Origin: Porphyridium purpureum
Lineage: Eukaryota
Reading direction: 5' to 3'
Length of the DNA stretch: 64,000 nt
Assembly: GCA_008690995.1 (NCBI GenBank)
Contig: VRMN01000004.1
Coordinates: forward strand, 1,302,001 to 1,366,000
This document shows positions 17,336 to 63,900 of this stretch, piece by piece. Each line of letters starts with the position of its first letter. Position 1 is the first letter of the stretch. A program made the translations under genes and the position numbers. A model generated the notes under the pieces. That model saw only the letters and a list, made by a program, of their open reading frames with translations, had not been told where the DNA came from and searched no databases.

Positions 17336-17861
17336 GGTTTCAAACTTGCCACTCGTGATGTCTATCCGGCTGCTGCTATCCGCGTCGTCGCGCACGTGTG
17401 GTGCACCGTCCACGCACAAACCGCAGCAGTCTCGGTCTCGAGCGCGAGCGAACAAGTAGCAAGAGCTGAAGCGGCGTCATGCCGTGCGCCACCCGCGCTT
17501 CCAACGCGCACTGTACCGACGGCTGTGCGGATGTACAGTTCGCGCACCAATTCCAGTACCCCGGTAGTGTACAAATCGCGCGCTGCTTGTTCTTTGTTTT
17601 CTTGGGATGCGCTCGATCGTGCCAGTCGCTTGGGGGGCGTGGCGATCGTGCTGCGGTTTGTGCAGGCGGACGGTGCGTCACGGCGAGAAGACAAGCGCGC
17701 TGGTGCGGGTACGGGTGCGGGCGCGCGCCGACGAAGCTCAATTCGGCGGGGGCGTCGAACGGTCACGCAGAAGCTAAGGGTGGGCGCTGCTCCGAGCGCG
17801 CATCATCGCTTGCCTTCCGCACGGGAACGGCGAAGGATCGAGGTAGACAGCCCCGACTGAC

Positions 17862-23826: not shown

Positions 23827-24997
23827 TTAAGACGTCATGTACGAGCTGACATCAATCTTCTCCGGTAGCTCCGGCACCGCCACGGCAAAGCGGCTCTGCA
23901 CCTCATTCAGCACTTCAACTTCTTCTTCCGTCGCTACAAACGAGACGGCGAGACCCTTGGTACCAAATCTGCCCGCCCGACCAACGCGGTGCAAGTATGA
24001 ATCGGCGTCCGGGGGCATATCATAATTGATCACGATGTTCACGCGCTCAATGTCAATCCCGCGACCAAAAAGATCTGTCGAAACCAAGATGCGCGCTTGG
24101 AAGTCTTTGAAGGCACGGTACCTCTTGATGCGCTCTTCCTGATTCAGAGTGGAATACATCGCAATCGAAGGAAAGTTTGACTCGTTCAAAACCTTGTTGA
24201 GCGCTTCCGCACGCTGCCCGCTTTTCACAAAGATTACCACTTGGTTGAATTCAAGTGCGTCGAGCAAATCGTTCAGCTTGCGGTTTTTCTGTGCCTCGTC
24301 CAGCTTCAAGTAGTACTGCAACAAGCCGTGCAGGGTCAATTTGGAATCATTGTCTACGATGACCTCCAAAGGATCCGTCATAAAATGCTTGGCGCTCTCA
24401 CGCAACGTAGCACTCAAAGTCGCAGTGAACATCATCACTTGCTTGTTGGCCGGAGTCGCCATGAAGATCTGCTGAACTTGTGGCCTCATTCCTGCTTCAA
24501 GTACACGGTCGCACTCGTCCAGTACGAAAAATTTGACCTTGCTGAGATCAACGTACTTTCGCTCGACTAGATCAGCCATGCGACCTGCGCTACCCACCAA
24601 AATATTGGGAATCGCAGCCTCTAGCTTCTCTTTATCCGCCTTGACCGGAACCCCACCAAACACGGCCATCGTACGGATGTCTTTGAGGTACTTGCTGAAT
24701 CGGTCAAACTCGGCCTTAATCTGGTACGCGAGCTCACGAGTGTGACCTAGCACGACGCAGGAGATGGTGTTCTCTTCAGGTTCGAGCTGCTGGAGTACAG
24801 CGAGACAAAACACCGCCGTTTTGCCCATGCCCGACTTGGCTTGGCAGAGAACATCCTGTCCCACTATCGCCTGAGGAATGCACTCGTGCTGAACCTCGGA
24901 TGGATGCTCAAAGCCGCAATCCTGAATCGCGCGGAGCAGCTCTGGTTTGAGCAAAAAGTCACGGAAACCAGCTGAATGCACGCCCACATAAGCACCT
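23827..24997 (-). CDS. UAP56: DExD-box RNA helicase UAP56/SUB2, exon 2
   Basis: [27 protein letters not shown] and [10 protein letters not shown]. Acceptor CAG ends at 24998. The spliced product is 434 aa. Confidence 0.95.
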
Positions 24998-26455
24998 CTG
25001 TGATGTTCATGGAAGCCAAATCATGCCGTCGTGGAAAGAACATGATGCAGAGACCCACAAGAACAAGCCGCGGAAAATTAGAAATCGCAGCAACGCGATC
25101 GACACAGAATCACAAAATCAAAAAATAAAAAAGTCAGGAGTTGCCGGATTAGTAACATGTTCACATCATCTTCGTCTTATCACACGTGACAATGGCAAAG
25201 ACTGAAATGACTCACATTGCGCACCGCTGACCCCGCCGACGACAAGAATGAGCTGGACAATACGGAACAGGGGCCAGGCAGGTCATCTCAAATGATCATG
25301 CGAAAGCAAGTTTGCCAGGCAATGTGGCTGCCTCCACGGAAACTGGCTTGCGAAGGGGACCTGATTTTTTCTGAAAATGAGCACTCGGCAATACTGCTGA
25401 GGCCGGATGCGACTGACGAGCCCCGAGGAATCTATGCACACGAAAAATCATCTTTCAAGCGTCTGTCATGCCAAGAATATGGGCAGCTCCCATCTCTTCC
25501 CGATGGACAAGCAACCAATTCATTCGTGAGCCTAGACATCCCAAGGAAGCACACAGAGATGGGCTGAATGGAGACCTTTCAGATCACCTCTGCAGAGCAA
25601 GAGCAAGAAATCAATCTCTCGTACATAAATACCAACGGTGCTGGATCTGAGCAACCAGGCACGGTCGAAACCTTTCCAGTACCACGGCTCGCGTCACGGA
25701 AGTTCCCCGGTCGCAGAAAAAAGTCCCCAGACACAAAATCAGAGAGAACAACGCCGTGCCTGCTCACCAACAAATTTCGAGAGAGACAAAAGGGGTGACA
25801 CTGCACGAACAAGCTGAAGACGCAAGTATGCCGTCGCTTCCTTCATTCTTCTCTCTTCGCCTGGAGGCCCCCAAATGTAATTCAAACACAAGGCGTTGGA
25901 GAGATTGTTTCCTGATAGAAATCCTCCTCCTGATGTCCCAATCAAGCTCATTCTTGTCCGGATAGGGCCAGAGATCCTAAATGACGAGATTTGTAGTCCA
26001 GCACGCCGCAGGAGCCACGAGGAAAAGAATAGAAAAAGAAAATAGGAAAGGCAGAGAGAGACCGAACCAAGGACGGTCGCTTCAAACACGGAGTGCGCTT
26101 GACCGCTGAGACCTCTTGAGAACCGGTTTGCGCCTAGTCCCTTCCCACTGCACGTTTGAGTACACGCCGCGCGCGAGTGAAAGCGACCAAAGCGGAAACG
26201 AACAGAAGGAGAATCGCTCGCGCCACACTCCTCCCGGCGAGGGCACGGGCCCGCCACCACGAGGCCAGTCTCTCGAGCCAGTCTCCGACCCGATCACGGG
26301 CCTCAACTCGCCCGGAACGAGCCTCCCCATTTGATTAAGACCTCCGAAGTCGGCCACCGCCGAGCTCTCTGGTCGCAACCGCGCGCCGTCGCTGCGGGGA
26401 ACCCGCAACGAGTGAAAACTTTCTACAACAGAAATATCCCGTCTATCTTACGTAC
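24998..26455 (-). other. 1458-nt phase-2 spliceosomal intron of UAP56
   Basis: Donor AA|GTACGT at 26455 and acceptor CAG|A at 24998 join to give ...[18 protein letters not shown], the conserved UAP56 sequence. Confidence 0.9.
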
Positions 26456-26589
26456 TTATTCCCCGACTTGGCGTCGGCCGGTGCATCGGCCTTGGAGGCT
26501 GCCGCGACCGGCGCATCCTCTTCTTCCTCGTAATCGACCAGGTCATCCTCCTTCACCGCGGCCTTGGCCACGCCGTTCTCCCCCGCCAT
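26456..26589 (-). CDS. UAP56: UAP56/SUB2 exon 1
   Basis: MAGENGVAKAAVKEDDLVDYEEEEDAP..., carrying the conserved UAP56 N-terminal LxDYEEE motif. Not in the ORF track. Confidence 0.9.
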
Positions 26590-27108
26590 GGTTCCGCGCG
26601 GCACCCGTCGACAAACTCCCTGCTTCTCACGAACGCCGTGCGGAAAGCCTCAGTTGCCACGAAACCGTTCCGCCCGTAGCCACCACAGTCGCTGTCGCTG
26701 TCCAAGCCTCACTCCCCCGCCTCTTCGCCTCGTACTCTGTCCGCACCGCGATTCTGCCGTGCTCCGTTGGTGCGCTCGTGTGCTATTGAGAGCCCGCACT
26801 GCCTGGGCCGAAGCTATGCGCGTTGATAGTAAAAACGGCTCGTTTTGCTAGACGACGCGCGCCAGTTGCGCGGTGTGTGGTGCACTCATCCGCGTGGAGG
26901 TGTACAGTATGGCTCTGTGTACAGTTTCACGTTTGCGGGGAGGTTTTGCGTGCCGTGAGAAGGAGCGGGAGGGTGAGGATGCAACAGGGAAGGGACATGA
27001 GCTGTGGGGAAGCGAGCGACGGGTGGGGAAAGGACGGGAGCGAGAGAGGGACGGGCGCGCGCGAGGGACGGAACGCACAGGGGAGTGGTTTGGAGAGGGC
27101 GCGCGGTC

Positions 27109-27390
27109 ATGGCGGACAAGATGGCGAGGGTGATGAGCACCGTTCGCGGCGAGAATGTGTTCTCGTTCATCAACCAACGCCTGTTCGGCGCGCGCGGCTT
27201 CAAGGGCCTGGCGCAGGCGTATTACGACAAGTACGTCGCGACGAACACCCTGATGCCGCTCGTGCACTACGCGAGTTACGCGTTCTTGTTCGGATACGCG
27301 CTCGAACACTCACACCTGAAGCATGTCAGGAAGCATGAGCAAGAAGAGGTGTTCCATATTCCGTCTATGCCAACAGAGGCGGACGTGTAA
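27109..27390 (+). CDS. ATP17: Mitochondrial ATP synthase subunit f (ATP17-like)
   Basis: 93 aa; YYDKYV...PLVHY...FGYALEHSHLKH matches the fungal/plant subunit f pattern. Confidence 0.75.
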   Translation: MADKMARVMSTVRGENVFSFINQRLFGARGFKGLAQAYYDKYVATNTLMPLVHYASYAFLFGYALEHSHLKHVRKHEQEEVFHIPSMPTEADV

Positions 27391-29903: not shown

Positions 29904-30995
29904 TCATGAAAAGCTAAGCCCTTCGAACTCGAAAACGTTCAAAGCGTAACCTACAAAGGAGATGACGCATGCAGAGATAAAGATCTTATTGCGCCAGCGT
30001 CGACTGCGCTCTGCTTCCGAAAGCTGCTTGGCGGACGTTTTGGTCGCTGTGTCCGCGGATCTCCGAGCCGCTTCTTCCGCAGCAGATCGGGCAGACATCC
30101 GCGCCGGTCTGGAATCGTTTGTTTCGGCAGCACTCATTTGCTCCGCGAGATCCGGGTACAACTTACTACGCATAGTGTGGCAAAACTGGACGAGGTTCTT
30201 TCTCTCCAGCAGGAGATCCCGCAGGCGTGAGTTTTGAATCGGCGAGTATACGATGCAAGACAAGTACCCAAACAGAAAGGCGTCAATCGACGCAGGTTTC
30301 CCACCGTAGAAGAATTCGCTGTGCGAACCCAGCCTGCTACTAAAATGCGAAAGCGCGAGGTCCGCATCCTGATAGGCTTGTTCAATACCTTGCTCGGTGC
30401 CCATGAGACCAGATTCCAGGGCCTGTCGTACACGACGACGTTCTTTCATAGGATTGAGCCAGCTCATCGGATATGTCAATCCCTCGGCAAGCTTCTCCTT
30501 GATGTAAACTTCGTAGCAGACATCGTCCAGGTACCACTCATAGAACATCACACTGGTAAACGTACTCTGCAGCAAGGATGCAAAGGCGTCCGACTCGGCG
30601 AGCTGTGTCTTCGTGAGCGCGCGATCAACCAGACCTATCATTCCTCCGGTGCGGGTACGAAGAACCTGACGTATCGCATGCAACCCAGCTGCCGAGCTGA
30701 TCCCGAGAGCTGCAGCATGATTGCCAGCATGATTCACTTTTCCAGCCGCTGCGCCAGATGTGGAATCAGCTGCCGATTCGGGACCCGTCGCAGTAGACGA
30801 GGATATGCGCGCACCCCGCACGTGCATATACGGCAAGCAATGAGTGGCCGTCATAGCGTGCGAGCTATTGCAACGCAGGGAGCAGTCGAGGCCTGCGACT
30901 TTGACAAGCGTCAGCGCAGCCATATCCTCCGGGTGCAGTAGCGGCAGCTCCCAGCCCGACGGGCCACAATACAAATGCACTTCAGATTGATCCAT
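29904..30995 (-). CDS. Metaxin (mitochondrial SAM-associated, GST-like fold) with C-terminal anchor
   Basis: WELPLLHPED, FFYGGKPASIDAFLFGYL, NLVQFC and a C-terminal TM helix. Likely ATG at 30995. Confidence 0.8.
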   Translation of the reverse strand: MDQSEVHLYCGPSGWELPLLHPEDMAALTLVKVAGLDCSLRCNSSHAMTATHCLPYMHVRGARISSSTATGPESAADSTSGAAAGKVNHAGNHAAALGISSAAGLHAIRQVLRTRTGGMIGLVDRALTKTQLAESDAFASLLQSTFTSVMFYEWYLDDVCYEVYIKEKLAEGLTYPMSWLNPMKERRRVRQALESGLMGTEQGIEQAYQDADLALSHFSSRLGSHSEFFYGGKPASIDAFLFGYLSCIVYSPIQNSRLRDLLLERKNLVQFCHTMRSKLYPDLAEQMSAAETNDSRPARMSARSAAEEAARRSADTATKTSAKQLSEAERSRRWRNKIFISACVISFVGYALNVFEFEGLSFS

Positions 30996-31177
30996 CTCCG
31001 CCCGCCGCGATCTAAAATGTCGCACCCGCATGAAGCCACCCCCGAGCCAGAGTGACAGGCTGACCAACGCGTTTACTGTTAAACCGTTTGGATCTGAGCG
31101 GCCGGAGCCTTTGGGACAAGCGGTGCGCGTGCTGACGTGCCGCCGGGACGGGAAGAGGTTCGTTGCCTCCTTTTGTG

Positions 31178-32032
31178 ATGTCCGACGCTAGGCCAGATCA
31201 AGATGATGCCCAAGAAGCGAGGGCACTTGAAGACGTAGAAGCAAATGAGCTGGCGCGCGGCGTGGTGCGCGAGCGGGCAGTTTGGGTCGAGCAAGCGCAC
31301 GGCATTCTTCTCCTGCGCTCGCATGTGGTTGGTTTCGGAATGTTAAGCTTGAGCAGAAGGCTCACCAAACCTTCCAGCGCGGGCAGGCGCGGAAAGAAAG
31401 GTGGGCGCCCGACGCACGGAGTCATGGAGGTACCTGAGAATGAGCACTTGCAGCTTACTTTGGAGGAAGCGTACTACGCCGCATTCGAGGCACGTCTGCT
31501 CTATATCTTTGGGATTGAAGACCCAGCAAAAGCATGGTTGGAGGAAGACTGTTGGGCGCAGTTCTGCTCTCTTGACTCGAACTTTCCCATGGCATTCGCT
31601 GCGTACTACAAGTACCGGAAAGCTGGCTGGGCACCGCACAGCGGACTCAAGTACGGAGCGGATTATGTTTTGTATGATCACCGGCATCTCATGAAGACCA
31701 AAGCTCATCATGCTCATGCACCTTACTGTGTGCGCCTTGTGTACAGGAGAGAGGATGAAGCCGACACCACCGTGCTCGCCGAGTCGGCACCCAGTCTTTA
31801 TGGTACGCTGCGGGTGACACATAATGTCGTCAAAAAGCTCGTCTTGTGCCTAGTTGTATATCCAGTGTCCGGTGGGCATCTTCGAAGTGCTTCAGACGCA
31901 CGGAGCTGTATCTCCGTCCGTGAACTCATGTTTAGAAGGTTTGTACCGACCAAGCATCTGACACCAACATGGCAAGAACTGAAAAAGCGACAGAAAATCG
32001 AAGAGCGCACGATCAAAAAAGCCCAGAAATAG
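31178..32032 (+). CDS. SEN2: tRNA-splicing endonuclease subunit Sen2
   Basis: EHLQLTLEEAYY, YRKAGW.PHSGLKYGADYVLY, HAPY and KKLVL motifs. Confidence 0.85.
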   Translation: MSDARPDQDDAQEARALEDVEANELARGVVRERAVWVEQAHGILLLRSHVVGFGMLSLSRRLTKPSSAGRRGKKGGRPTHGVMEVPENEHLQLTLEEAYYAAFEARLLYIFGIEDPAKAWLEEDCWAQFCSLDSNFPMAFAAYYKYRKAGWAPHSGLKYGADYVLYDHRHLMKTKAHHAHAPYCVRLVYRREDEADTTVLAESAPSLYGTLRVTHNVVKKLVLCLVVYPVSGGHLRSASDARSCISVRELMFRRFVPTKHLTPTWQELKKRQKIEERTIKKAQK

Positions 32033-48991: not shown

Positions 48992-50420
48992 TGACCAAAT
49001 CGGACAGGGGACAGTACGTTTTTCAAGGTTCACTAGCAAAATGATCTGCTTTACTATAAAAGGGAAAGAGGTCCGGTGAAAAGGGAATGTGGAATAGGTC
49101 GAAACGGATAGGGGACACGGCATATTTCTGGCCATTACTCAGCCATAGAGAATCGGAATTGGTCGCGGTTTCCTTGCACGTACGCGCCTTGAAGATACAC
49201 ACAGTCGAATATTCGTTTCGGCAGCGACGCGTACAAATTGGCCATCACAGGCTGGTCCAAACTCTCCCAGGCCAGTAAAATGGCAAACTTGAGCTCCAGC
49301 ACCGTCTCATACTGCCTTGCACCCTCGTAAACATTGCACGCTAGTATCCTCCACAATTTCTCGATGATATTAAAGTCCGGCGAATACGCTGGCCAGTCTA
49401 GGAGCTCCACATTCTCGTCATTCATGAAATTCTTAACCAGGCGACTTGTGTGCACTGGCGCGTTATCCTGCTGAAAAACCATGTTCGGGCCCACCATCTG
49501 ACGGCAGCGGCTCAGCACGTTGTTCTCTCGAAGCATGGAAACATATTTTGCAGCCGTAAATGACCCCTCAATAAAATGAAGGTGAATCTTTCCTCTTGCA
49601 GAAATTGCACCCCAAACCATGCATCCACCGCCGCCGGAATGTCGCGACCAAACGTATGGAACGTCCGCCGCACGCTCAACACACGTCTTGTGGAAACCAT
49701 CGGGTCCGTCCAGGTTGAACTTCTTTTCGTCAGTGAACACAATTGCGGCCCAATTCGCCTGTTCCAATTCATGGTGCCTGGCCGAGGCCAGCCTCTTGAG
49801 CTTGCAATTAAGTATCAGTGACAGACAAGCTGGAATTATGCGGTATGCATACGTGTCACTCACTGCCTTGATGATTGTTATCAAACGTTGGACAGGTTTT
49901 GCTCCACAAATTCGCAGAGCTGCTTGGAGCTGACGAGCCGTGTGAATGGTCGGAAGCTTAGCAATGTTGTAAATCTTCGTTTTGACCGCCTCCGTCAGCT
50001 TTAAAGCGTTCACATTGGCATATTTCTGGCAGTACTCGTTTGGAGCCGACAAATAGCTGAAAACCACGTTCTTAGAGCGCCCAATTTTGGTCGCAATGGC
50101 TCTGACGCTGTTGCCCGACTCTGGGAGACCCTGAAAACGTCCTTTCTCCTCGCCTGTAAGGCCAATCTTGCGCCCCATGGAGTCAAAATGGAGCTCGTTA
50201 CGAGCTGCGATGGATCCGCACTTTTCCGCTTACACTGAACCGCCGACGTCCGAGATATTTCGCTTCCACGCAGTGTCCCCTATCCGTTTTGAGCCACAAA
50301 TTTCGTCGTAACCGTTGCAGACGAACCCCACCGTTCTACTTTCATAGTAAAAGATCAAACTTTACTATTAATGAACTATTTTTTCTGAAAGTTTTGATTG
50401 TCCCCTGTCCGATTTGGTCG
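48992..50420 (-). mobile_element. Tc1/mariner DNA transposon with IR/DR-type ends
   Basis: Perfect 21-bp outer IR at 48993-49013/50399-50419 and 17-bp inner IR at 49102-49118/50273-50289. TA follows the right end; the left flank reads TG. Confidence 0.88.
49135..50178 (-). CDS. Tc1/Tc3-like transposase, DD34E
   Basis: N-terminal HTH, then VFTDEKKFNLDGPDG, FQQDNAPVH and WPAYSPDFNIIE (34 residues between D2 and E); uninterrupted 347 aa. Confidence 0.93.
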   Translation of the reverse strand: MGRKIGLTGEEKGRFQGLPESGNSVRAIATKIGRSKNVVFSYLSAPNEYCQKYANVNALKLTEAVKTKIYNIAKLPTIHTARQLQAALRICGAKPVQRLITIIKAVSDTYAYRIIPACLSLILNCKLKRLASARHHELEQANWAAIVFTDEKKFNLDGPDGFHKTCVERAADVPYVWSRHSGGGGCMVWGAISARGKIHLHFIEGSFTAAKYVSMLRENNVLSRCRQMVGPNMVFQQDNAPVHTSRLVKNFMNDENVELLDWPAYSPDFNIIEKLWRILACNVYEGARQYETVLELKFAILLAWESLDQPVMANLYASLPKRIFDCVYLQGAYVQGNRDQFRFSMAE

Positions 50421-55993: not shown

Positions 55994-56300
55994 TATTAAA
56001 AGGTCTGATGTATCGGGGAGTCTTTGTGACTTGTCACTAACGCAGTTGCGTGTCCCCTTCGTCGCCCTTGCAACTAACCTTACCTTCGTCATCCGGGGAC
56101 TCCGAGCCTCGGCCATCGCTAAGCTCTTCATATAGGCAATCGTAGTGCTTTCACTAGTGAGATTGCCAACTGTACCTCCAGGGCAAAAACCCTTATTTAC
56201 TATAAGTTGGAGAAATACAGAAAGTTGGAGCTGAAACATTCCCCATGGTATTACTACTTTACCTGGGGAGGGAATCTACCGAAACCCTGGATTCATAACA
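55994..56300 (-). mobile_element. Solo LTR (307 bp) of the young Copia family
   Basis: Reverse complement of the 57702-58026 LTR minus one 18-bp repeat unit; no PBS or PPT adjacent. Confidence 0.92.
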
Positions 56301-57701
56301 ATAATGCTATAGATACTATGGGGATCTTTCGTTCAAACTGTTACGTTTGTTTGCAGTTTGGACTTCCGTGAGATTGCTCCTCAATCCGAAATAATAGAAA
56401 ATCCAGTCGTTGATCTTCTGGATCTTTCTCCAGCACAGTCTGCATCTGCATAAACTTGACTACTTTTCGTAGACATAGTAGGATAAGTCAGATCGCAATC
56501 TAGAGTTCCCTTTGGATACCGTGTACCCCTTTCGCAACTTGCACGTGTCATTCGATTACCAGGACGTCTATGACAAGGAGTCCCACCAAACAGGGGAATA
56601 TTTTGTCAAGTGCAAAAATTTATGTACATGAAAGCATCCAAGGTATCGATGCATGGAGAACAAAAAAATGAATAAATAAATTGGTAGGCCTGGACTCCAG
56701 TGCGGCATATTCCAACGCTAGGTGTATTTTACGGATTTCATGCCTCCATTCTAAATGTTCCAAAATAATCTATTTACTACATTTGAGAATGAATCAGTAC
56801 TCAATTCATTCGGTGGCATTTGAATCATATCCGGTAAATCCTAGCTTCGAGCCTTCTCCAAAAGTATGAATTTTATATTTTTTCACAAGATAACAGCTGA
56901 GTGCTGTTTCACAAATTTCGTGAGTATTTACTGACAGGCAATTGAGACATCAAGATTGAAGCCCTACACGTTAACTTCTTAAAGACCTATGGAACTGTTT
57001 CGAGGGCAGAGAGTACCGCGCTTCATACAGAACCTTGCACAAAATTTCAATCCAGGCACGCGAGACTTGCATACATTTTCAACTTGTCTTTCCCAATTTC
57101 AGGTTTTACTTTCTCAGGCACTAATTCTGTCACACTGTTGCATGATAACATCCTTTTGCAGAATATCATTTCGGAATACTATGGTGTCGCCGACCGAAAA
57201 TGCATGCTTTTCTTTTGTAGCATGATCAACTAAATTTGTTCATCCCTCTTTGGCGTGTTGCCGCACTGATCGATGAATTCTCGCGATGGCATGCTGCAGC
57301 ATTGATTATATCATCGAGTGGCATCCCCAGCCTCTGTGAAAATTCGTTCTTGCCCAGCTTGCCTTTATACCAATCCATGATTGCCGCAGCATGAAAGTTC
57401 GCTTTGGTGCCTCGCTTGGATTCGGCAAAACTTAAATGATCCAAAGATTTAAAGATCTTTTGACAATGTATACTCTCTTTATCAGTGTCTTAAGGTCTTT
57501 ACCAAATAAATTTCTGCATTGAGTTGCACATCTCTTAGGAAGAATTTTTTTGTGGGAATCTGATTTAATGATCTCATGTGTAGCAATAGTAGTAGTTGTA
57601 TTACCCAGCCAGTCGGCTTCACAAGACGGTAAAGACTTAGAATCGTAATCTATGTGGCCACTAGGTTTTTTTAACTTTCATCGAATCTTGGACGCCGAAA
57701 T
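56301..57701 (-). pseudogene. Second degenerate Ty1/Copia RT-RNaseH relic
   Basis: DWYKGKLGKNEFSQRLG (cf. DRFKCRLVAKGFTQKPG), QVSRAW, AFMYINFCT*, RYPKGTLD...VYADADCAGERSRRSTTGF...AISRKSKLQ. Confidence 0.8.
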
Positions 57702-58026
57702 TGTTATGAATCCAGGGTTTCGGTAGATTCCCTCCCCAGGTAAAGTAGTAATACCATGGGGAATGTTTCAGCTCCAACTTTCTGTATTTCTCCAACTTTC
57801 TGTATTTCTCCAACTTATAGTAAATAAGGGTTTTTGCCCTGGAGGTACAGTTGGCAATCTCACTAGTGAAAGCACTACGATTGCCTATATGAAGAGCTTA
57901 GCGATGGCCGAGGCTCGGAGTCCCCGGATGACGAAGGTAAGGTTAGTTGCAAGGGCGACGAAGGGGACACGCAACTGCGTTAGTGACAAGTCACAAAGAC
58001 TCCCCGATACATCAGACCTTTTAATA
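57702..58026 (+). repeat. 5' LTR (325 bp, TGTTA...TAATA)
   Basis: Matches the copies at 60922-61246 and 55994-56300 in reverse orientation. Confidence 0.93.
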
Positions 58027-58037
58027 GGTTATGAGCC
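58027..58037 (+). promoter_or_regulatory. Primer-binding site GGTTATGAGCC (internal/half tRNA-iMet type)
   Basis: Immediately follows the LTR; same type as the copia/Ty5 PBS. Confidence 0.8.
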
Positions 58038-60921
58038 TAGACGCGATGGCGTTTACGTTTGATGCGTCGAAGCTGTCCGCGCTTGCGAACGGCGTGGAAA
58101 AGTTCAATGGCGAGAATTACGACATTTGGGCACGCCGCACGAAGCTCGCGTTGCGTGTGGTGAAGCTGTGGCCCGTCGTTGCGGGGATGGTCGTTCGCCC
58201 ATCGTCGTCGTCGCGTGCAACTACCGGGATGACGGCAGAAGAGTGGGACGATGCGGACCTGGCGGGACAGTTCTTTCTGTCCGGGGTCTTGGAGAACAGG
58301 TACGACCGTCTCGTCCGCGATAAGTCGTCGGCGGACGGTTGGTCCGCGGTGGCGAATTATGCGCACGATCAACTGTCGGCGCAGAAGTTCGCGTTTCGCA
58401 TGGCGCTGGAGCGCATTGTCCAGAACAAGAACGAGGCAATGGCCGAGTACTTGGATCGCGGAATCGGTCTGTGGGACAAGCTTGTCTCGATCGGTGAGCA
58501 AGTTCCCGAGGACCATGTCGTGCGTTATCTGGTGATCGGGCTCCGCAAAGAGTTTCAGGGGTCGAAGGACTACCTGCTGCATTCGGCGCCCACGGTCTCC
58601 GCAGCTCGGCTGCAACTGCTCCAGCTGGAGGCCGGAAAAGCGCTCGAGCGCACGTTGGCAGATGAGCCCCCGCCCATCGCAATGGCGGTGTCCCAGCGTC
58701 CGCAGCAACAGCAGCGTGATCGCTCAGCGGGTGTCGTGAAGACGGCACTCGTCAAGGAGAACCTGAAGTGTGGCTACTGCCACAAGGTTGGGCACGAGAC
58801 GAAGCGTTGCTTTAAGCGCAAGAATGACTTGCGCGACAAGGCTGCTGGTGCGAGTGGCGCAGCAGACCCGGAGGCAGTGAAACGCGGCATCGGAAAGCCG
58901 AATGCGCGGGTGAATGTGGTTCAGGTAAAAACCAAGGTGACGAAACCACCGGCTCCGGCGGCAAAGGCAGCCATTGAGCCAGGTTGGATGTCGTGGGAGG
59001 CCTACGCGAATAGCGTTGCGGGAAGGGGCGTGGTGCCAAAAGGCCCTTCTCTGGATATCCGCATGATTAGCCCCCCAGCGACCCCTGCACCAATCAATAA
59101 AGCCACCACTTCCATCTATGCCATCTGTGTCTCTGTTGTGCCCCACAAGCACAAGTCGCACAAATGGATGTTCGATTCTGGATCGGACAGACATATCACT
59201 TGGGATAGGTCTATTCTAATGAATGAAAGACCTTCTGATGAATCACTTGTTACTGTTGCCAACGGGGAACATGTTGAAGTTTCATTGATGGGTGATGTCA
59301 TGCTCAAAACAATTATTCAAGACAAGTTTAATGACTTGCGTCTTGAAAATGTTTTGTTGATCGAAAGCACACCCATAAATCTCCTTTCGACAAAGGTCGC
59401 AGCGAGAAAGGGCTGTGTCTTCAAACACGATGATAGTTCATCTGTTTTGCATTTTGGGTCAGATGGGCCCGTCCTAGCGGTTGGGGATGGTGATTTAATG
59501 ATCAAACTATCCGCCGCTAGAATAAATGCAATCACAGCTTCAAATAAGTTTGAGCTATTTCACCGTCGACTTGGTCATCCTGGACTTGCTGGTCTGAAAA
59601 ATACGCAAAATTGTGTACAGGGAATTCCCGCGGACTTAAAAGTTCCGGATGAATACCATTGTGTGATTTGCCAAAAGGCAAAGGGAACACGAACTCCCTT
59701 TAAGAAGCGGAAATTGAATTCCATTTCGGCGGTTCCGGGAGAAGTCCTTCATACTGATGTATGCGGACCACTCACTCCTTCGAGTTTTGACGACCATCGA
59801 TATTTTCTAGTTGTCGTCGACGAATGCTCAAGTTTGAGTGTCGTCCACTTGCTCGAGCGAAAAAGTGAAGCGGGTGAAATGTTACTGCGCACACTTAAAT
59901 ATCTCGAAACGACTCTTGGTGCAAAGGCAAAAAGAGTTCGGTCCGACAAAGGTGGCGAATTCGCAAGCCTTTATGTGCAAAGGCATCTCCAAGACTCTGG
60001 AATTACTTGGGAAAATACCTCTGCTTACACGCCAGAACTTAATGGTATGGCTGAACGCATGAATCGGACATTACTCGAAAAGGTTCGAAGCTTATTGTTT
60101 GATAGTAATCTACCTTTGGAAAATTGGAGTAATGCTTTGTTGACTGCGAATTATTTGCGAAATCGCATTTCAAATAATCGCGGGAAAACGCCGATAGAAA
60201 TTGCATTCAGGCAAAGGCCAGATCTCAGCAATCTCAGAATCTACGGATCGAGAGCGTTTGTTCATATTCCTAAGCAATTGCGAGGAAAACTAGAAACAAG
60301 ATCTGCAATTGGATGCTTGGTCGGTTATGGAAATGTCCATTCCGTTTATCGCATTCTTCTATCGGATGGCACGGTCGTTGAAAGTCGAAATGTCACTTTC
60401 GATGAGTCTGTCGTTGGAATAGATGTTCATGAACATGAAATCCACGATTCGGAATATTTTTCCAACTTCGATAAAATTGTCGAAGAGTTGTTTCCAAAAG
60501 ATTTCTCGAAGTCGTTTGATGAAAAGTCTCAAATCGCGTCAAAAAATTTTGAAACAGATTCCACTCGACAAATGGATGATCGCAGTCAGGAATATTCTAT
60601 TTCAAATGAAATCGGAGAAACGTTTCTGGAAAAAGTTCAGAATAATTCGAAAGATTTAGGGTTCCAAAAGGCTCCAAATGGAAACTTTGGGAATACTGAG
60701 GATGACGAAAGTCAAGACAGTGGATATGTCGCAAATCAATTCGTTGGAATAATTTCCACCGTTTCTGAACCTCGGTCAGTCGAAGAAGCACTAAAGGGTG
60801 ACTTCTCTGAGCAATGGCTGGAAGCTCTGAATAGAGAATTGGAATCTCTCACTGGCAAATGCACGTGGGAGCTCGTCGATCGTCCACAGGACCGAATTCC
60901 TGTCAGATGCAAATGGGTTTT
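58031..60921 (+). CDS. Copia gag-pol, truncated (frame runs on into the inverted LTR to 61063)
   Basis: FNGENYDIW, CGYCHKVGHETKRC knuckle, FDSGS protease, HRRLGH/CVIC, LHTDVCGP, RSDKGGEF and NGMAERMNRTL. Confidence 0.9.
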
Positions 60922-63900
60922 TATTAAAAGGTCTGATGTATCGGGGAGTCTTTGTGACTTGTCACTAACGCAGTTGCGTGTCCCCTTCGTCGCCCTTGCA
61001 ACTAACCTTACCTTCGTCATCCGGGGACTCCGAGCCTCGGCCATCGCTAAGCTCTTCATATAGGCAATCGTAGTGCTTTCACTAGTGAGATTGCCAACTG
61101 TACCTCCAGGGCAAAAACCCTTATTTACTATAAGTTGGAGAAATACAGAAAGTTGGAGAAATACAGAAAGTTGGAGCTGAAACATTCCCCATGGTATTAC
61201 TACTTTACCTGGGGAGGGAATCTACCGAAACCCTGGATTCATAACACTCCCACGCAGCGACAACTTTTCGTCATGCCTTCCACCTCTATCTCGAATTTTC
61301 AAGACAAGCAACACCCAATAAGGTTTTGCATTTCAAAAACATTTCTCGAGGAACCACTTTGGTTAGGAAATCTGCTGCCTGATCTGATGTGCGAATGTAA
61401 ATAGCCTTGACTATTCCCCGTTGCTGACATTCGCGAGCATAGTGCTTTCTCACGTCAATGTGCTTCGACCTTTCGTGCACAATCGGGTTCTCACTCAGTT
61501 TCAGTGCAGCATCATTGTCACAAAACATTGGAATCGATTTCGACTTGAATCCTAGGAATTCCATGAGATATTGAAACCACTGGGCTTCTTTACATGCATC
61601 CGAGAGAGCCATGTACTCTGCTTCGGTTGTGGACAGCGCCACAGTTGGTTGTAGCCTGGATTTCCAGGAGACAACTGATCCATTGATCGTGAAAGCATAT
61701 CCGGTGGTTGACCTTCGCGTTCGAAGATCACTAGCATAGTCTGAATCAACGTAACCAATTAGGTCGGAGTTGCCATTTGAGCTAAATTGGAGACCATAAT
61801 TTATGGTTCCTTTAAGATATCGCAGCACTCCCTTTGCCGCATTCCAATGGGATTCATTGGCATTTGCCATTGATCGTGCAAGCACTCCCACGGCGAAGGA
61901 AATATCCGGACGCGTGCAAGTGCACAAATACATTAGTGCTCCCACGAGTTCCATGTAAGGCATCTTGCATGGTTCTGCAGTAGCAGTATACCACTTCGTA
62001 TCCTTTTCCATGGGAAGCTTCCTTGGATTCGCCGATTCCATTCCGAACCTTTCCAGGATGGTTTGGACATACAAGCTTTGATTAAGTCTGATAATGCCAT
62101 TCCTTTGATCATAATCAAGAGTGTAGCCGGCAAATTTTTGCTTGACCACTTGCCCAAGATCCCTGACTTCAAACTTGCCTTGCAAATGCAGAAGCACTTC
62201 ATTTGAAGTAACTTCGTCTTCACCTATGAAGACCAAGTCATCGACGTAAATCATGATATACGGACCATTTGGACCCTTAGAAAACAGACAAGGATCTGCC
62301 GTACTTTCGGAAAAATTGATTTCTTTAAGTGCTTGCACAAGAACTTGATTCCAAGCTCGAGATGCCTGCTTCAATCCATAGATTGCTTTACGCAGTTTCA
62401 GGACTTTTCCTCCTTCATGTACGAATCCAGGAGGCTGTTCCATGAAAATTTCTTCATGAAGTTCTCCATTGAGAAACGCAGTCACCACATCGAAAAGTCG
62501 AATTTTCAACTTTCTTGCAGCTGCTACTGCCAGGACCGTTCGAATAGTGTTGTGTCGCACAACAGGGCTGAACACTTCGTCGTAGTCCAAACCAGGTTTC
62601 TGAGTGAAACCTTTTGCGACAAGTCGACACTTGAACCGATCAATTTGTCCGTTGACATTATATTTGATCTTAAAAACCCATTTGCATCTGACAGGAATTC
62701 GGTCCTGTGGACGATCGACGAGCTCCCACGTGCAGTTGCCAGTGAGAGATTCCAATTCTCTATTCAGAGCTTCCAGCCATTGCTCAGAGAAGTCACCCTT
62801 TAGTGCTTCTTCGACTGACCGAGGTTCAGAAACGGTGGAAATTATTCCAACGAATTGATTTGCGACATATCCACTGTCTTGACTTTCGTCATCCTCAGTA
62901 TTCCCAAAGTTTCCATTTGGAGCTTTTTGGAACCCTAAATCTTTCGAATTATTCTGAACTTTTTCCAGAAACGTTTCTCCGATTTCATTTGAAATAGAAT
63001 ATTCCTGACTGCGATCATCCATTTGTCGAGTGGAATCTGTTTCAAAATTTTTTGACGCGATTTGAGACTTTTCATCAAACGACTTCGAGAAATCTTTTGG
63101 AAACAACTCTTCGACAATTTTATCGAAGTTGGAAAAATATTCCGAATCGTGGATTTCATGTTCATGAACATCTATTCCAACGACAGACTCATCGAAAGTG
63201 ACATTTCGACTTTCAACGACCGTGCCATCCGATAGAAGAATGCGATAAACGGAATGGACATTTCCATAACCGACCAAGCATCCAATTGCAGATCTTGTTT
63301 CTAGTTTTCCTCGCAATTGCTTAGGAATATGAACAAACGCTCTCGATCCGTAGATTCTGAGATTGCTGAGATCTGGCCTTTGCCTGAATGCAATTTCTAT
63401 CGGCGTTTTCCCGCGATTATTTGAAATGCGATTTCGCAAATAATTCGCAGTCAACAAAGCATTACTCCAATTTTCCAAAGGTAGATTACTATCAAACAAT
63501 AAGCTTCGAACCTTTTCGAGTAATGTCCGATTCATGCGTTCAGCCATACCATTAAGTTCTGGCGTGTAAGCAGAGGTATTTTCCCAAGTAATTCCAGAGT
63601 CTTGGAGATGCCTTTGCACATAAAGGCTTGCGAATTCGCCACCTTTGTCGGACCGAACTCTTTTTGCCTTTGCACCAAGAGTCGTTTCGAGATATTTAAG
63701 TGTGCGCAGTAACATTTCACCCGCTTCACTTTTTCGCTCGAGCAAGTGGACGACACTCAAACTTGAGCATTCGTCGACGACAACTAGAAAATATCGATGG
63801 TCGTCAAAACTCGAAGGAGTGAGTGGTCCGCATACATCAGTATGAAGGACTTCTCCCGGAACCGCCGAAATGGAATTCAATTTCCGCTTCTTAAAGGGAG

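Follow-up and report, generated by a model that had tools for sequence, protein, structure and literature searches.

The question raised by this locus is whether two complementary 14-nt sequences, found about 690 nt apart in a 64-kb window of Porphyridium purpureum DNA (the window being the whole stretch of 64 000 nucleotides that was analysed), pair with one another in a transcript and whether such pairing bears on how that transcript is spliced. The perfect repeat was present as an earlier note on this DNA had described it, each arm being the exact reverse complement of the other. In the RNA, which is read from the minus strand, 25958–25945 forms the 5′ arm and 25254–25241 the 3′ arm; the arm sequence is single-copy in the window even when up to two mismatches are allowed. 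Coordinates of the features are collected in Table 1.

Table 1. Features of the SUB2/UAP56 locus in the window, with the orthologous introns in the coordinates of their own loci.
Feature	Position	Strand	Remarks
SUB2/UAP56 coding exon 1, 134 nt	26456..26589	-	Ends at phase 2 of a Lys codon; joint 26456->24997 in 5/8 runs
GT-AG intron, 1458 nt, GTACGT...CACAG	24998..26455	-	Often unspliced in transcript assemblies
Productive donor GTACGT	26450..26455	-	GTACG common to three orthologous red algal introns
In-frame TAG, met if the productive donor is skipped	26443..26445	-	Read-through K-Y-V-R-stop
Extended 5′ arm of predicted helix	25935..25988	-	Prediction only
5′ arm of perfect 14-bp core	25945..25958	-	Exact match
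Candidate decoy acceptor: pyrimidine tract plus CAG/AGGTG	25590..25612	-	No use in 8/8 runs
3′ arm of perfect 14-bp core	25241..25254	-	Exact match
Extended 3′ arm of predicted helix, ends on alternative donor	25211..25268	-	Prediction only
Alternative donor GTGAGT	25210..25215	-	Removes 218 nt (25215–24998); leaves stop-containing 1240-nt exon 1 extension
Branch-point-like ACTAAT	25148..25153	-	Predicted mostly unpaired
Second branch-point candidate TCTAAT	25082–25077	-	
Coding exon 2, 3′ of CACAG acceptor	23827..24997	-	DEAD, Helicase_C
Orthologous introns	L012 4532–4091, L022 2818–2240, L032 4530–4091	-	

Both arms lie within a minus-strand gene. Joining 26589–26456 to 24997–23827 gave an open frame of 434 amino acids, the second exon of which, with its DEAD and Helicase_C domains, showed a 100% match to P0001 (ATP-dependent RNA helicase SUB2, Porphyridium purpureum, 434 amino acids). 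The host gene is SUB2/UAP56, which encodes an mRNA-export helicase, and it has one intron, in which the repeat is situated as the earlier note had it. A short transcribed gene at 27001–27390 (contigs in all four runs checked; no Pfam match) is divergent from UAP56. In the available parts of two reports the introns of P. purpureum were counted as 235 and 245 (bioRxiv 10.64898/2026.05.17.725761; PMC5880011), so that any intron in a gene of this alga is uncommon, yet one of 1.46 kb has been kept in a core mRNA-export gene.

How rare the repeat is depends on where it is looked for. A perfect 14-mer had been held to be unlikely by chance; this stands for the intron itself, dinucleotide shuffles of which contained a perfect repeat of at least 14 bp in eight of 2000 cases (p about 0.004) and one of at least 13 bp in 30 of 2000, but not for a search of the entire window, where 0.65 perfect repeats of at least 14 bp within 1.5 kb are expected and at least one was obtained in 43 of 100 shuffles. 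Because of this window-wide expectation the 14-bp repeat is suggestive only by its location, and by itself it amounts to modest evidence. The window contains five more perfect repeats of at least 14 bp, three of them at transposon-like ends. A Tc1/mariner-type element occupies 48993–50419, with 21 bp perfect terminal inverted repeats round a 364-codon frame with DDE_3 and HTH_Tnp_Tc3_1 domains; another element (56204–57798) has 99-bp perfect terminal inverted repeats and adjoins a copia-type gag-pol frame (58028–61063). At 30590–31787 the arms of another perfect 14-bp inverted repeat lie about 1.2 kb apart, both in open frames [Tom37/GST_C-like (minus strand) and tRNA intron endonuclease (plus strand)]; this repeat is likely to be chance background for repeats of such size.

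Folding predictions placed the 14-bp repeat at the core of an imperfect helix of about 46 bp on the transcribed strand (25988–25935 with 25211–25268), in which 46 pairs had P ≥ 0.78 and the core pairs P 0.94–1.0; formation in the pre-mRNA, as earlier proposed, is thus also predicted here. The arm duplex was computed at −59.7 kcal/mol on the transcribed strand versus −46.9 kcal/mol on the other strand. The imperfect extension that had been suggested was recovered on one side: the outward CCG/CGG pairs were predicted (P 0.92–0.96), whereas inward a different register (GAT/GTC plus TGGGAC/GTTCCG, P about 0.8) was preferred to GGACA/TGTCC. About 20 further outer pairs, which the earlier note did not contain, would extend the helix across the 25 nt that, as stated there, separate the core arm from GTGAGT on the minus strand (25215–25210), and so to the donor itself. 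The outermost predicted pairs cover AATGTGAG at 25218–25211, the internal donor, positions −2 to +5 of which were predicted to be paired at P 0.93–1.0; opening this donor was computed to cost 6.45 kcal/mol when the 5′ arm was included in the fold and 3.98 kcal/mol when it was left out. The productive donor was likewise predicted to be paired (P 0.81–0.89), and the predicted masking is therefore not donor-specific. Strain differences numbered nine in the intron and zero in the arms, a zero that chance gives about half the time (the arms being 112 of 1458 nt). Three of the differences fall where pairing is predicted with confidence; two of them preserve the pair and one disrupts it.

Against shuffled controls the fold stood out for the enclosed domain and the whole intron, but less clearly when the domain was run again or when the helix was scored with G–U pairs. 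The energy of the enclosed domain was reached by none of 40 shuffles (z −2.9; equal-length exon-2 control, eight of 25, z −0.6) and the folding energy of the whole intron was better than that of 33 of 34 shuffles; a second test on a near-identical domain was weaker (z −1.6, one of 20 shuffles). In the number of long-range pairs and the depth of nesting the whole intron was ordinary (15 of 34 and six of 34 shuffles, respectively). The first complementarity scoring was rejected as uninformative for long sequence: its gap costs were too low, the alignments ran for hundreds of bases and 192–197 of 200 shuffles matched the window intron. Three stricter scoring sets were chosen after this had become apparent, and the first of the three was used for the ortholog test described below. 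With G–U pairs and gaps allowed, the helix was the intron's best long-range match, but a marginal one: with two of the scoring sets 18–24 of 300 shuffles equalled it, and with the strictest 74 of 300 did. The arms were unremarkable in a single-window test, in which arm B paired equally well or better with three unrelated windows. A hairpin stronger than the UAP56 helix (15-bp perfect core, about 26–28 near-contiguous pairs; z −4.3, 0 of 100 shuffles, minus strand) was found at 17390–17690. It lies 50–350 nt upstream of a minus-strand ferritin gene and also upstream of a divergent plus-strand kinase with DUF7477; among its possible identities are an iron-control structure in a 5′ UTR, a cruciform at a promoter and a small foldback element.

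Transcripts were examined in eight runs from six studies, of 20 runs holding the sequence, and in all cases as assembled contigs, which lose rare forms and the depths of which are poor measures of expression. Only X11 of the eight is recorded as RNA and the comparison included no DNA run; the intergenic bin upstream of the gene had zero cover in all eight. The full splice 26456->24997 was present in five runs. The intron was covered by contigs in every run (with an 18-nt gap in X3), and in X6 and X8 a single contig held it together with the flanking exon sequence at either end; X3, X6 and X8 showed zero joints in their assembled contigs, from which rare forms can drop out. In X4 and X14, from two studies, a joint 25216->24997 was found (the X14 row carrying the flag 'between: not known'), which establishes the GTGAGT near the arm as a real donor, as had been supposed. 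Each of these two runs also contained one unbroken 1270-nt contig leading from the internal donor back into exon 1 (25216–26485), and the internal donor is therefore an alternative 5′ splice site and not part of a cassette exon. Contig depths for the full splice, the internal splice and the unspliced 3′ part were 5.9, 3.8 and 8.1 in X4 and 43.9, 17.1 and 33 in X14, from which it can be read that the internal-donor form is common enough to survive assembly, and no more.

After exon 1 the unspliced and the 218-nt-spliced forms both read K-Y-V-R-stop, the stop falling four codons into the intron, and in the 218-nt-spliced form the splice junction lies about 1.2 kb behind that stop. A junction far behind a stop is the usual mark of a decay substrate, and this form is likely to be one. 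The frame that runs into the alternative donor holds one ATG. It lies 24 codons upstream of the donor, well downstream of the true start and of the stop in the frame of that start, and is unlikely to give rise to a protein.

Homologues were used to ask how widely the intron is found. Of 32 homologous proteins examined, 18 were without the exon-1 motif, and 16 of these 18 had unrelated residues ending in R directly before G-x-Y. Unrelated residues ending in R are expected when a gene caller crosses an AG acceptor at the same phase-2 site, and the intron position thus appears to be common across red algae. From 35 metagenome loci given by one scan, the three of red-algal type with both exons (L012, L022 and L032) were used and the other 32 were set aside. 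In the tree these three formed one clade, so they are not independent lineages; they grouped with Agarophyton in a clade with Porphyra as sister. Their introns (442, 579 and 440 nt, respectively) start with GTACG and end with GAAG, and the internal GTGAGT is present in none of them. The three introns gave no stable alignment (runs gave differing alignments, and the consensus fold was without the single-sequence helices), and they had only scattered 9–12 nt words in common with the window intron. The ciliate-type loci, read by eye, had only short introns at about this site (that of L027 is about 60 nt long and at the exact site), and the same DNA pattern had no match in genome contigs or viral contigs.

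A long rod was nevertheless predicted in each of the three red-algal introns: a 13-bp helix with one G–U pair in L012, a perfect 14-bp helix containing a palindrome in L022 and a longer interrupted helix in L032. Of 100 shuffles of each intron, none equalled the long-range helix of L012 or of L022 and one equalled that of L032, whereas among 64 tiles of equal length, taken as controls from these loci, two were equalled by two or fewer shuffles. The energy z-scores of L012, L022 and L032 were −2.4, −2.9 and −1.2, respectively. L032 fails the strictest scoring (63–68 of 300 shuffles) and the antisense strand of L012 folds better than the sense strand. On these predicted folds, what is common to the introns is a property: a long intron with a GTACG donor and predicted long-range pairing. 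The GAAG end of the three introns is an AAG acceptor and not YAG, Porphyridium having CACAG, and several further homologues have R-R-G here; AAG may be a conserved weak acceptor in the red algal orthologs. A red algal protein, P0015, begins in intron-like sequence at the same site; the name of its record follows the style of transcriptome assemblies, which hints that the intron is retained in the RNA of another red alga too.

The reading that we prefer, tentatively and at a little under an even chance, is that the helix folds 780 nt of the intron away, covers the internal donor and changes the ratio of productive to stop-containing mRNA. We infer this causal link from the gene model, the repeat and the three RNA forms, which were observed, together with the helix and its cover of the donor, which were predicted. 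The helix would form as the 3′ arm is transcribed and, once formed, would fold away the 780 nt and hide the internal donor. Of the two branch-point candidates the first, ACTAAT (25148–25153), is about 65 nt away from this donor and 1.3 kb from the main donor; when uncovered, the internal donor, being the nearer, would compete with the distal GTACGT. A closed helix would thus favour the distal GTACGT and full-length UAP56 mRNA, an open helix would yield the stop-containing form, the likely decay substrate, and slow assembly would leave the intron in. Donor choice might in this way set the dosage of UAP56. That UAP56 senses its own level by opening the helix in its own intron and exposing the unproductive donor, and that red algae from Porphyridium to florideophytes have kept the intron long and folded by structure and not sequence despite losing most other introns, is a further inference that we regard as decidedly doubtful. 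According to the available part of PMC3608606, total UAP56 transcript level is kept in Arabidopsis when one of its two genes is lost, and an excess of UAP56 is harmful in yeast and animals.

The same observations might arise if the repeat had come about by chance or were neutral in a long intron rich in G+U, with inefficient splicing by a reduced spliceosome accounting for both retention and the internal donor independently of any helix. The 0.65 perfect repeats of at least 14 bp expected across the window, the marginal G–U helix and the unconserved sequence of the orthologous introns all agree with this, and the alternative outcome in Cyanidiales and Galdieria is mainly retention, according to the available parts of two reports (bioRxiv 10.64898/2026.05.17.725761; PMC5880011). 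We nevertheless regard it as somewhat unlikely: all three orthologous introns were at the top of their own loci for long-range pairing against two of 64 controls, the predicted helix in the window ends on a donor that is used and only eight of 2000 shuffles of the intron reached 14 bp. Alternatively, the helix might inhibit splicing in the manner of RPL22B: the structure, perhaps stabilized by a bound protein, would stall the spliceosome and favour retention of the entire intron. This would accord with the presence of the unspliced form in all eight runs and with yeast RPL22B, in which, according to the available part of the report (PMC13630204), a GTACGT donor identical to that of UAP56 is found together with a second, unproductive donor and a stem that inhibits splicing. 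The branch-point candidate is, however, predicted to be open, and in yeast, according to what is available of PMC12350175, cryptic sites are enriched for structures and canonical ones depleted of them, so that inhibition appears to us unlikely.

The earlier note had the helix looping out a decoy acceptor, for which it gave no coordinate; we took this to be CAG/AGGTG at 25592–25590. Between the arms there is indeed a pyrimidine tract followed by this motif, the internal donor is in use, and a cassette from about 25589 to 25216 might then be a decoy or poison exon comparable to the decoy of human DDX39B intron 6 (122–369 nt, strong retention activity; available part of PMC6097662). As in that class, the retained intron is longer than 1 kb (1458 nt, in 8/8 runs) and an internal donor is joined to the downstream exon (2/8 runs). 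No joint into any internal acceptor was found in the eight runs, as contigs from which rare forms can be lost and with decay unblocked, and decoy exons are often rarely spliced according to the available part of the same report (PMC6097662). In both runs that use the internal donor the contig 25216–26485 is unbroken, and a local hairpin of 9 bp is predicted to bury the candidate acceptor. The looping-out of a decoy acceptor was therefore not upheld, and a decoy cassette is very improbable. Still less can be said for an origin of the arms as the terminal repeats of a small transposon or as the processing stem of an intronic snoRNA, which we consider extremely improbable. The spacing of about 690 nt would fit and true terminal-repeat elements occur in the window, but the flanks differ, meaning that a target-site duplication is absent, the 64-kb window holds no second copy, the outer extension depends on the G–U pairs of one strand and no C/D box pair with a terminal stem was found. 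Rfam gave no match at gathering score in the window or in L012, L022 and L032; a plus-strand match to Toga_5_CRE was weak (E 0.025, 18 bits versus a gathering score of 120) and unrelated.

A literature search, which covered mostly open papers without the Porphyridium genome paper and its supplements, the tables of which might list the isoform, found neither this intron nor its alternative donor or structure described. If, as we prefer, the helix controls donor choice, the locus would be a compact case of UAP56 dosage control through RNA structure in a lineage whose spliceosome is reduced. It would also parallel human DDX39B, where the retained intron occupies another position in the gene.

Three known systems, each taken from the available part of its report, are the closest for comparison. 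Yeast RPL22B (PMC13630204) resembles the UAP56 intron in its suboptimal GTACGT main donor, its unproductive internal donor (here GTGAGT, with the stop at 26445–26443), its predicted long stem and its RNA-binding host product. The alternative donor of RPL22B is, however, 65 nt downstream of the main donor, whereas that of UAP56 is 1240 nt downstream and within the helix; in yeast the stem inhibits splicing and binding of Rpl22 has been shown, whereas the UAP56 helix is known by prediction only. With the zipper stems and protected cryptic sites of yeast (PMC12350175) the intron has in common a long stem in a long intron, an intron-poor genome and a competing site that is predicted to be covered. 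A zipper stem as defined by Rangan et al. has at least 6 bp and a total linker of 42–85 nt to the donor and branch point (PMC12350175); the window helix lies outside this range, with 467 nt plus about 60 nt (~530 nt), and among the orthologs the predicted linker of L012 (about 80 nt) is the only one to fall within it (L022, about 134 nt; L032, about 97 nt). Intron 6 of human DDX39B (PMC6097662) belongs to the same gene family and is likewise a retained intron with internal sites that lead to non-coding forms; the term 'secondary structure' is absent from the main text of that report as available. DDX39B differs in that its sixth intron is concerned, with cassette joints and U2AF binding, whereas in Porphyridium it is the first intron and an alternative donor only. 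By analogy with these systems the element may work like a structured regulatory intron in the gene of an RNA-binding protein, for which the decoy-exon and autoregulatory classes are candidates only.
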